A stretch of 64,000 bases of DNA from a virus (lineage: Duplodnaviria > Caudoviricetes), in IMG/VR virus record IMGVR_UViG_3300027708_000016, one strand, 5' to 3'. Positions 28,088 through 45,233 of this stretch are shown piece by piece. A model generated the notes under the pieces. The model had not been told where the DNA came from, made no database searches, and saw only the letters and a list, made by a program, of their open reading frames with translations. The position numbers were made by a program, and so were the translations under genes. Within the stretch, counting starts at the first letter, position 1, and every line of letters starts with the position of its first letter.

Positions 28088-28138
28088 TTATATATCTTAT
28101 GGAAAACTTAAAATTAATCAAGTAAAAAATAAAAAAAT

Positions 28139-28222
28139 CGGGTGACTGAGGTATCGATCCCCATGCCTTTCAGCACCGCTAGTTTTCAAGACTAGGTTTA
28201 ACGCCAGTTAAATTAATCACCC
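28139..28222 (-). tRNA. tRNA-Ser(UGA)
   Basis: CTAGT-CTTGAAA-ACTAG, long variable arm. Confidence 0.85.
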
Positions 28223-28229
28223 TAAAAAA

Positions 28230-42913: not shown

Positions 42914-43624
42914 ATGTCAACAATTATGCAAGGACTAAACGATAAAATATGGCAGAACAACGGACGCATTGTTCCAGAAGTCAGAGAAAAATTATTACAA
43001 ATCTCCAAAAGGTTTTTAGATGATTTCATCACACCCGTAACAGTAAAAAATATATACATCGTTGGGTCAATTGCATCTTATCAATGGACACCAACAAGTG
43101 ATATAGATGTCCATATTACAGTAGACATCAATGAACCACATGCTGATAAAAGCACAGATGATTACTTTGATTTGAAAAAAGACTTCTTCAATAGAAGTCA
43201 TAATATTTTTATTAAAGGATTTAAGGTTGAAATCAATATTAATGAAGAAAGTGCAGAGCAAAAACAATTTTGGAAAGATAAACCCGTTTACGACCTTTAC
43301 AATGATAAGTGGATAAAGAAACCAAACTTTAACACGAGAAAACTAAATGACCCTCTGGTTTTAGAAATTTCTTCTTATTTTGAAAAATTAATTAAGAAAA
43401 TGATACGTGATGGAAATCCCTATTATGATTTTAAAAAGTTGAAAGCAACAATAAAAGCATTAAGAAAAAGAGGTTTAGAATATGATGGAGAATATTCCAT
43501 TGGAAACTTAGTATTTAAAAATCTTAGAAACTCTGGAGCAAACGAAAAGCTTTTTACTTATCGAGCAGAATTAGAAGACAAAGAATTGTCTCTTGAAAAG
43601 TTTAAGAACTTTTTTAAGAAGTAA
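42914..43624 (+). CDS. Pol-beta-superfamily nucleotidyltransferase
   Basis: GSIASYQWTPTSDIDVHI, IKGFKVEINI, GEYSIGNLVFK.LRN.G. Confidence 0.85.
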   Translation: MSTIMQGLNDKIWQNNGRIVPEVREKLLQISKRFLDDFITPVTVKNIYIVGSIASYQWTPTSDIDVHITVDINEPHADKSTDDYFDLKKDFFNRSHNIFIKGFKVEININEESAEQKQFWKDKPVYDLYNDKWIKKPNFNTRKLNDPLVLEISSYFEKLIKKMIRDGNPYYDFKKLKATIKALRKRGLEYDGEYSIGNLVFKNLRNSGANEKLFTYRAELEDKELSLEKFKNFFKK

Positions 43625-43874
43625 ATCCGTGTGTTCAATGAAATCAGAAACATGTATTAAAGGACACAAAAACTGATTGTTAACGGGTTCTCCCCATTAC
43701 TCTAGTCACGAATTTAAATTATTCGGGTAAAGAAGAATGAAGGCGTTCCTCCTTTACCCTATCACTGTGTAGCTTTTATTTTAATTCTCATTGGTGATAG
43801 AGTCGAAAGAAAGTGGAAGATATCAGCTTCCACCCCAAGACCCAACAAGAAACCTTACGAACTACTTGGATTAC
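43621..43874. ncRNA. Candidate ~250-nt multi-helix ncRNA (unassigned)
   Basis: Closing GTAA(A)TCC/GGATTAC stem; hairpins GGGTAAAG/CTTTACCC, CTATCAC/GTGATAG, GTGGAAG/CTTCCAC, AATCAG/CTGATT; no ORF. Confidence 0.55.
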
Positions 43875-43877
43875 ATT

Positions 43878-43971
43878 TGGTAGGGTGTATCAGAATTGCA
43901 CTGATGCTCGGCCCTCATCTAGGGCGCACAGATTATAAGTCTGTCGGTACTTCTAATTATACGAACACCCC
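43878..43971 (-). tRNA. tRNA with UAU anticodon and long variable arm
   Basis: ACAGA-CTTATAA-TCTGT; V-arm GCCCT-AGATG-AGGGC; A73-CCA. Confidence 0.8.
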
Positions 43972-43977
43972 AAATTT

Positions 43978-44157
43978 TTAAAGGTCTTCTTCCTCCTTCT
44001 CAGGGTTAATCAAGTTATCGATCTCTTCTTGAATTCTCTTGATCTCATCATTGTATGCCTTTGATGAGGATTTCTTACGATCCTTGATCTCATCCAAATC
44101 CTTGCAGAGTTGGAATACTCTTTCTTCTCTTGTTGTTCTTGCTGTTGTTGTTTCCAT
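43978..44157 (-). CDS. 59-aa coiled-coil protein (not in ORF track)
   Basis: METTTARTTREERVFQLCKDLDEIKDRKK...EEEDL*. Confidence 0.6.
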   Translation of the reverse strand: METTTARTTREERVFQLCKDLDEIKDRKKSSSKAYNDEIKRIQEEIDNLINPEKEEEDL

Positions 44158-44173
44158 ATTGTTTGTTTAAAGT

Positions 44174-44249
44174 TGGTAGCTATGGTCGGATTCGAACCGA
44201 CACTTTACAGATTTTAAGTCTGTTGCCTCTGCCGTTGGGCTACATAGCC
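44174..44249 (-). tRNA. tRNA-Leu(UAA) with short variable loop
   Basis: ACAGA-CTTAAAA-TCTGT; 76 nt; CCA. Confidence 0.9.
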
Positions 44250-45233
44250 ATATTGTTATATGTTTATAATAGTTGTTTCAGAGGTTAATGTCAATACTTC
44301 TTTGTAATCTTTCCCTTAACCTTTACAAAGCCTTCAGTCTTGCCAGAAGTTTTAGGAAAGTTCTGAACAAACTTTTTCATATCAGATACACGAGATTTAG
44401 ATCCTTTTGACATATTATTTGAAGTGGATTTGATATGCTTGGTTTGCAGCGTGAGTAATATAGTGTTTTGCGTTTTTCTTTACCACATCTACAAGATCTT
44501 TTTTAATTGAAGATTTTGTGCTAAACAATGTCTGAGTGTTAATATTTGTTTCCACAAAATGTAGAAAACTATCAAGAGTATCTCTTATGATTTTATCAAT
44601 TTCTAGTTGATCTATTCTTTCTTTATTATTTTCGTTGTTGCTCATAAATTTTTACTTGTTCTTAATAAAGCGACCCTTGTTATCTCTCATGAGTCTTTTT
44701 ACTGGTTTCTTCTTCTTGATAGGGTTAAGGTTAACCGAAGACTTTACATTTTCCCTATAAAACTCAACTGCTTTCTTAAGATTCTTCTTTGTGGTTTTCT
44801 TGGTCTTCTTTGCATACTTCTTAATGATTTCATCCGCTTCATCTGGTGTTACCTTAAATGATGGATTTTTTGAATTAAAGATTTCTGAAACATGCAAACC
44901 TTCATTGGCAAGAAACTCAAGTCTCTTTAAGACATAATTGCCATTGAAACAATGATCACTTGTTGCAAGCTTTAGAATCTCAATAAAGATGTTTGTAATG
45001 TCATCCTCTGAACCATTGTAGTAATCAGAATGAACATACTCATTGAGGTTACTGTGACTATCTAACCATGTATATAGACAGTTAATGCTACTTAGGGTAT
45101 TAACAGGAATAACCTTGTTAATGTTATCAATTACCACACAAAGAGCCTTTGCAACTCTTGAATCTTTATTTGTATTAGTCTCATTCATATAAGACTATCT
45201 TAAGCTTATTTTTTAAAAATGCAAGATTTATTT

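Follow-up and report, generated by a model that had tools for sequence, protein, structure and literature searches.

Two separately inherited structured RNA modules behind tRNA-Ile(UAU) in a T4-like phage, one of them shared with T7-like phages

What is encoded by the open-reading-frame-free DNA that separates the last tRNA gene of a phage tRNA unit from the gene converging on it? Here, we describe the computational analysis of such an interval (43621-43874) in a 64,000-nucleotide stretch of viral DNA (IMG/VR record IMGVR_UViG_3300027708_000016; hereafter the window), an AT-rich segment of a T4-like phage whose minus strand carries all of its 17 tRNA genes and its tmRNA gene. A first-pass annotation, made from the letters alone, had proposed a single multi-stem RNA of about 250 nt. 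Its description of the interval holds: 43625-43877 is free of ORFs of 60 aa or more, and ORFs touching the interval reach at most 32 aa; G+C content is 0.38, compared with about 0.26-0.33 in the flanks; and the interval adjoins the 3' end of tRNA-Ile(UAU) on the minus strand (Table 1). The minimum of four helices that it gave is also upheld, with five counted in the 5' part (module B) and three in the 3' part (module A). The whole interval folds better than its shuffles (z -2.69; 4 of 200 equally good), as do the 3' part (z -2.97; 1 of 200) and the 5' part (z -2.50; 3 of 200). The search against Rfam that had been suggested, run on 43400-44300 with Rfam 15, returned tRNA-Leu and no other match even at E<=10, and blastn in distant mode with the interval region against GenBank phages likewise matched tRNA-Leu only.

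Table 1. Features of the locus and of its two RNA modules, in window coordinates
Feature	Position	Strand	Basis and remarks
Convergent nucleotidyltransferase gene (NTP_transf_2)	42914..43624	+	Pfam and homologue searches; stop codon 43622-43624
Module A, predicted three-way-junction RNA, ~97 nt, core ~65 nt	43622..43718	-	Fold prediction and covariation
A helix P1 (10 bp, closing)	43716-43707 with 43631-43622	-	Fold and covariation
A helix P2, GAGAA loop	43699-43693 with 43687-43681	-	Fold and covariation
A helix P3	43678-43673 with 43647-43642	-	Fold and covariation
Module B, predicted five-helix RNA, ~157 nt	43721..43877	-	Alignment of window, L143, L145 and L157
B helix H1	43865-43860 with 43774-43769	-	RNAalifold
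B helix H2	43851-43842 with 43794-43785	-	RNAalifold
B helix H3	43841-43839 with 43804-43802	-	RNAalifold
B helix H4, hairpin	43836-43827 with 43819-43810	-	RNAalifold
B helix H5, 13-bp hairpin	43759-43747 with 43737-43725	-	RNAalifold
tRNA-Ile(UAU), long extra arm, unusual T loop	43878..43971	-	ARAGORN; CCA 43881-43879
59-aa ORF between the tRNA-Leu and tRNA-Ile genes	43978..44157	-	ORF list; kept in relatives
tRNA-Leu(UAA), first gene of the putative unit	44174..44249	-	ARAGORN and Rfam
Sigma70-like promoter (TTGACA, 17 nt, TATTAT; 11/12), upstream of tRNA-Leu	44266..44294	-	Consensus scan only

Relatives of the locus were collected by synteny from IMG/VR, JGI metagenomes and exact-protein look-ups, using as anchor the nucleotidyltransferase gene, which lies outside the RNAs, and the DNA between the tRNA CCA and the convergent gene was compared. 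The nucleotidyltransferase has 552 relatives in IMG/VR, its family being very widespread among contigs of aquatic T4-like phages, and tRNA genes adjoin the gene only in the closest relatives of the window's copy; 80 more distant loci have no neighbouring tRNA, and a search of a sample of 44 of these 80 with model R2 (described below) found no module A motif. Among the close relatives, the interval resolves into two separate, independently inherited structured non-coding RNA modules on the minus strand. In the window, and in L143/L144, B and A both trail tRNA-Ile(UAU), in that order; B occurs without A in L145-147 and L157; A occurs without B in L001, L002, L119/L152, L150, L155 and L160; and L118, L148 and L149 carry neither. 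In the A-only genomes A directly abuts the tRNA CCA, and in the B-only genomes the final hairpin of B abuts the stop codon of the convergent gene. The tRNA can do without either module, as both are missing from some close relatives. The proposal of one RNA of about 250 nt closed by end-to-end pairing therefore fails: a short AUCC/GGAU pairing of the ends is present in the centroid fold of the window, and it is not conserved, because its halves are found apart in relatives and because the 3' end is taken up by the covarying helix P1 of A. A second proposed pairing, ACUCUA with UAGAGU, joins one module to the other and is thus impossible in relatives that carry a single module, so it was rejected as a conserved feature. 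AU-rich single-stranded linkers lie between the tRNA, B and A in the window.

The collected genomes also yielded observations on the tRNA genes and on the site itself. A tRNA-Ile(UAU) of the window type, with T loop UGCAAUU, is shared at 100% identity by the window, L143, L150 and L157, lineages whose nucleotidyltransferase genes are only 73-95% identical, and the tRNA-Ile(UAU) of other relatives has a canonical UUCGAUU T loop; together these suggest that the tRNA gene has been exchanged between phages. In one JGI contig (L117), the tRNA-Ile(UAU) lacks its T loop and the module A behind it is intact, which may reflect a deletion variant or an assembly artefact. Upstream of tRNA-Ile(UAU) in L148 lies a tRNA-Leu(UAA)-like gene apparently split in the anticodon loop by about 230 nt resembling a group I intron. 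Behind the nucleotidyltransferase gene, sibling genomes have either an HNH_2 endonuclease gene (P0017 context) or a 189-aa ORF (L158:2304-2873) whose stop codon lies inside a diverged A-like element; the position has the look of a hot spot at which cassettes are exchanged. Elsewhere in the window, directly 3' of tRNA-Cys (28088-28229, minus strand), a U-run comes after a cloverleaf of about 90 nt that has a long extra arm and, centred on UGA, a 7-nt loop; the cloverleaf was called by neither ARAGORN nor the Rfam tRNA model, and it may represent either an additional class II tRNA (Ser-UGA-like) or some tRNA-like RNA.

Module A was predicted independently as the same three-way junction in the window, L001 and L002. 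Its closing helix P1, whose 3' strand overlaps the stop codon of the convergent nucleotidyltransferase gene, leads into two hairpins: P2, of 5-7 bp across the variants with a GAGAA or GAGAG (GAGAR) loop, and P3, which varies in sequence and in loop length. The three strands that join the helices are conserved, reading ACUAGAGU, AAC and UUCAUUGAACA in the window and AMUAGAGY, RAC and YCAYUGAACA as family consensus. In a structure-fitted alignment of the 8 variants found by synteny, from which covariance model R1 was built, 94.6% of cells are paired, 12 of 21 pairs have changed on both sides, and 0 of 500 shuffles do as well. An alignment of 18 distinct A sequences made with plain MAFFT, free of any structure fitting, retains standard pairs in 90.7% of 376 pair cells, compared with 58.9% in shuffles and at most 43.4% when partner columns are slid, and 19 of the 21 pairs have changed on both sides. 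A diverged A-like element in L158 was missed by models R1 and R2 and was excluded from these alignments. No second copy of A was found in the window. Comparative support for module A as a new, uncatalogued RNA family is good.

Module B was aligned in 4 variants, with a mean column identity of 92%. RNAalifold places 44 pairs in five helices, none of them broken in any sequence: all 176 of 176 cells are paired, 6 pairs have changed on both sides, and L145 and L157 have new sequence on both strands in the middle of H5. Of the 26 variable columns in the B core, 19 are paired. Compensatory base changes are accordingly present in both modules. Two exact-word scans of IMG/VR gave 0 matches to B elsewhere, no second copy was found in the window, and B resembles neither T4 rnaC/rnaD nor the sequences flanking other A copies. 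Coding potential was considered for B and rejected: an AAGGAGG lies in H5, but there is no conserved start codon or frame, and an AUG in L145 corresponds to ACG in the window. Module B is a new lineage-specific structured RNA, seen only in this phage lineage, with support that is good but thin (n=4).

Both modules bear the mark of RNA from the tRNA strand. In the helices of A, cells with G-U outnumber those with A-C by 14:1 (8 sequences) and 29:8 (18 sequences), and in the helices of B by 26:0; the window's A folds at -24.8 kcal/mol on the minus strand versus -14.0 kcal/mol on the plus strand. These counts and energies exclude a plus-strand RNA or a DNA palindrome, and selection has therefore acted on the tRNA-strand RNA and not on duplex DNA or on the nucleotidyltransferase mRNA. 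Because a sigma70-like promoter lies upstream of tRNA-Leu and no strong terminator was called between it and the modules, it is plausible that B and A are co-transcribed with tRNA-Leu and tRNA-Ile. The terminator scan of the window gave one weak partial site only, inside H5; in the B-only relatives the H5 hairpin is followed by a U-rich run, and H4 is followed by UUUCUUU. Contigs from RNA libraries (three runs; sparse, of low depth, and carrying neither strand nor end information) cover the neighbouring ORF and tRNA-Leu, and one contig of depth 2 covers 43707-43768 and continues into sequence unlike the window. The 59-aa ORF of the putative unit has no Pfam or PHROG family.

Module A extends well beyond this locus. 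A search pattern was written from the three conserved single-stranded elements, with the helices left free except for the two innermost P1 pairs; because the pattern fixed the core, core conservation among the members that it found is by construction, and their helices are their sole independent evidence. Across 185,579 species genomes the pattern found one site, in a Verrucomicrobia single-cell assembly (L163), which R1, built without it, scores at 53 bits (E 2.7e-10); 120 relatives of this genome gave no A match. In IMG/VR the pattern found 14 further A loci. Model R2 was built with the pattern-found loci included; R1 finds 8 A variants and R2 finds 16 loci, and R2 scores for matched family members outside the window are 70-86 bits. 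An earlier form of the pattern gave 33 matches in IMG/VR, which, except for two known contigs, were without P1 pairing or an adjacent tRNA and were taken to be chance matches, and a looser form with the closing P1 pairs relaxed added only 3 matches, all rejected by R2. Carriers of the family are freshwater T4-like phages, marine T7-like phages, other phage contigs and the one Verrucomicrobia genome, and the motif-bearing genomes that were searched (7 phage records and 1 bacterial genome) hold one A copy each.

All A-bearing sites lie at the border of a transcription or coding unit. In the window lineage A directly follows the CCA or follows B. In a T4-like contig (L186) it begins 2 nt past an ORF stop, and a U-run and then the next promoter come after it. 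The Verrucomicrobia copy begins 7 nt past an ORF; a terminator comes about 50 nt further on, and beyond that a convergent gene. In a 35-kb phage contig (L184) A stands at the left end, about 65 nt ahead of a strong terminator, and in a 39-kb contig it lies about 100 nt past a TTGATT-17-TATAAT promoter, read by eye. In at least 6 distinct marine genomes of podovirus size, A fills the short gap directly upstream of a T7-like RNA polymerase gene (PF00940, E 6.6e-93), whose start codon lies about 12 nt past P1, with no U-run between. A sigma70-type candidate promoter of the marine copies (TTGAAC-17-TAGACT; 8/12) is under the scan threshold and overlaps an ORF in one genome, so that a place for A at the 5' end of the transcript is a possibility only. 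The gene upstream of the motif and RNA polymerase in two marine T7-like contigs (L165:4102-4449, L179:1112-1495) encodes a small protein with a DnaA C-terminal helix-turn-helix domain; no Pfam or PHROG clue came from neighbouring proteins. The earlier proposal of a novel class of non-coding RNA allied to tRNAs thus survives in part: the interval is non-coding, structured, on the tRNA strand and outside Rfam, but it is not one class of RNA, and A is not tied to tRNAs, since its members also precede T7-like RNA polymerase genes, follow ORFs and occur in a bacterial genome.

The reading that we favour, and hold to be probable, is that A and B are two RNA modules trailing tRNA-Ile(UAU), with A serving as a transcript-boundary element that has a role in processing or stability. 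Both would be transcribed from the promoter upstream of tRNA-Leu, in a unit that would run through tRNA-Leu, the 59-aa ORF, tRNA-Ile(UAU), B and A and end against the convergent gene. The AU-rich linkers after the CCA and between B and A could let tRNA-processing nucleases free discrete small RNAs, by analogy with T4 RNAD and RNAC. Module A would be a self-contained boundary element, separating an upstream tRNA or cistron from what follows and leaving a folded, nuclease-resistant end, and it may act through recognition by a conserved factor or through self-cleavage; the 13-bp terminal hairpin of B may double as the terminator of the unit in genomes without A. The position of A at borders, its single copy, its spread over unrelated phages and its conserved junction fit a small ribozyme or the site of a conserved factor. 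A metabolite riboswitch fits these less well because several A contexts have no downstream gene, and a plain terminator fits less well because the marine copies have no U-run and would have no need of conserved junctions. A boundary role leaves unexplained why about 17 unpaired nucleotides are kept across unrelated phages. A bolder form of the proposal, which we consider unlikely, is that A represents a new class of catalytic or factor-recruiting RNA that would cut transcripts at borders, namely the 3' end of tRNA-Ile and the marine RNA polymerase message, and that B would be a second new stable RNA with a function of its own.

If A itself were the catalyst, it would be a new small self-cleaving ribozyme, cut at or near its 5' border, that frees a tRNA 3' end or an upstream cistron and leaves a 5'-OH on the downstream product. 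In favour of this, the three-way junction is compact, its stems covary freely and its junction nucleotides are strongly conserved, and the occurrence of single copies in unrelated phage types, behind tRNAs and in sense-orientation gaps, resembles the distribution of theta/HDV-like ribozymes (PMC10879173). Against this, A matched no Rfam ribozyme family at E<=1-10, the hammerhead core and the HDV-like strand order, mapped by hand, misfit the covarying helices, and the tRNA here already encodes its CCA, unlike most tRNAs associated with theta ribozymes; we judge this identity for A unlikely.

We also assign a low probability to the reading of A as a riboswitch-like aptamer that binds a ligand or protein and controls termination or translation of the adjacent gene. 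Its architecture, a closing P1 with two hairpins and conserved junctions, is aptamer-like, and what lies downstream varies in the manner of expression platforms: L163 and L184 have a terminator at 50-65 nt, L186 has a U-run straight after P1, and the marine copies have a start codon about 12 nt past P1. Such an element is generally expected upstream of a same-strand gene, and A is so placed in the marine T7-like contigs; the window lineage and L163, however, have no same-strand gene downstream, the next gene being convergent. Nor do the genes adjoining A copies share a function, and no known riboswitch family was matched.

That the interval holds nothing beyond terminators, or hairpins stabilising the 3' ends of two convergent units, strikes us as very unlikely. 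Its location between convergent genes, the U-rich run behind H5 in B-only genomes, the UUUCUUU after H4 and the long U-run after P1 in L186 would all agree with this, but a single weak terminator is called in the window, and terminators require neither enclosing multi-helix folds with compensatory changes nor junction sequences kept across T4-like and T7-like phages; the marine copies, moreover, directly precede a start codon. Least credible of all is that the modules act as DNA, in a recombination hot spot where mobile elements (homing-endonuclease cassettes, att-like sites) would have left scars or would find their targets, a reading prompted by their presence or absence among close relatives, by the HNH_2 gene (P0017 context) or 189-aa ORF (L158) at the same site in siblings, and by the mosaic tRNA gene, identical across lineages with nucleotidyltransferase genes 5-27% different, but opposed by the strong G-U over A-C asymmetry of both modules (26:0, 14:1, 29:8), which fits selection on one RNA strand, and by the absence of flanking direct repeats, of duplicated tRNA ends and of a second copy in any genome searched.

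Folded RNAs adjacent to phage tRNAs have been known since T4 RNAC and RNAD, and here one such trailer resolves into two units, of which A is a compact and well-supported motif common to T4-like and T7-like aquatic phages and missing from Rfam. Its short core (about 65 nt) is open to direct tests of self-cleavage, ligand binding and protein binding. Should A process transcripts, it would extend the recent finding that small phage ribozymes replace host enzymes in tRNA maturation, and it could serve as a marker for the boundaries of early regions and tRNA units in uncultured phages.

As far as the comparisons reach, neither module belongs to any named RNA family tested (three diverged A members, L165, L169 and L174, also gave no match to Rfam 15 at E<=1), and small structured RNAs at phage tRNA units are of a known kind. 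Among tRNA-operon trailers, the 3'ETS of E. coli glyW-cysT-leuZ (3'ETS-leuZ) is released by tRNA processing and has its own function as an sRNA sponge; it pairs with sRNAs and lacks a conserved fold of several helices. The modules resemble it in trailing a tRNA operon. Like A, the hammerhead ribozyme joins three helices; the two are similar in size, and both combine variable stems with a conserved core at the junction. The YUGA in one junction strand of A recalls the hammerhead U-turn. The junction strands measure 8/3/10 nt in A compared with 7/3/1 nt in the hammerhead, however, and by hand comparison no circular permutation of A fits the hammerhead core (CUGANGA, GAAA, single H17), G8 and GAAA being missing in every permutation tried; Rfam gave no hammerhead match to A.

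The closest analogues are T4 RNAC and RNAD, together with the theta ribozymes. Phage T4, which is related to this phage since the window comes from a T4-like phage, has two small stable RNAs downstream of tRNA-Arg, RNAD of 119 nt (species 2) and RNAC of 139 nt (species 1), in the order tRNA-Arg, rnaD, rnaC with spacings of 1 and 6 nt; no role has been established for either (PMC3014915, PMC9697503), and Rfam has no family for them. Here as there, two structured RNAs of about 100-160 nt stand head to tail behind the last tRNA of the unit: B starts 1-2 nt after the CCA, A follows B, and both lie on the tRNA strand. Both trailers, moreover, begin with AAUG after the CCA. Homology to rnaC and rnaD was not found, with no R1 match in the T4 region (L154), only 8-mers in blastn-short, and different folds. 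The tRNA-like T arm of T4 RNAC and the terminal CCA of RNAD are both absent from A and B, and copies of A, unlike the T4 RNAs, are also found apart from tRNAs and in T7-like phages.

Theta ribozymes are minimal HDV-like ribozymes found at the 3' ends of phage tRNAs and also in intergenic gaps, mostly in gut phages and beside tRNAs without an encoded CCA (Kienbeck et al. 2024, PMC10879173), and they supply a precedent for a cleaving RNA at such a place. They differ from A in fold, which in theta is a nested double pseudoknot with a P1 that does not close the structure and a catalytic C in J4/2, and in A is a plain three-way junction closed by P1. The theta/HDV-like strand order (P1-P2-P3-P1'-P1.1-P4-J4/2 C-P2', cleavage at G1) was rejected for A, whose covarying helices are a closing P1 and two simple hairpins with 3 nt between them compared with the 7-nt P1' strand needed; it was rejected for B also, the first bases of which have no conserved partner in B-only genomes. 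The carriers of A, again unlike those of theta, are aquatic phages, and the tRNA-Ile(UAU) encodes its CCA. [quoted passage not shown]
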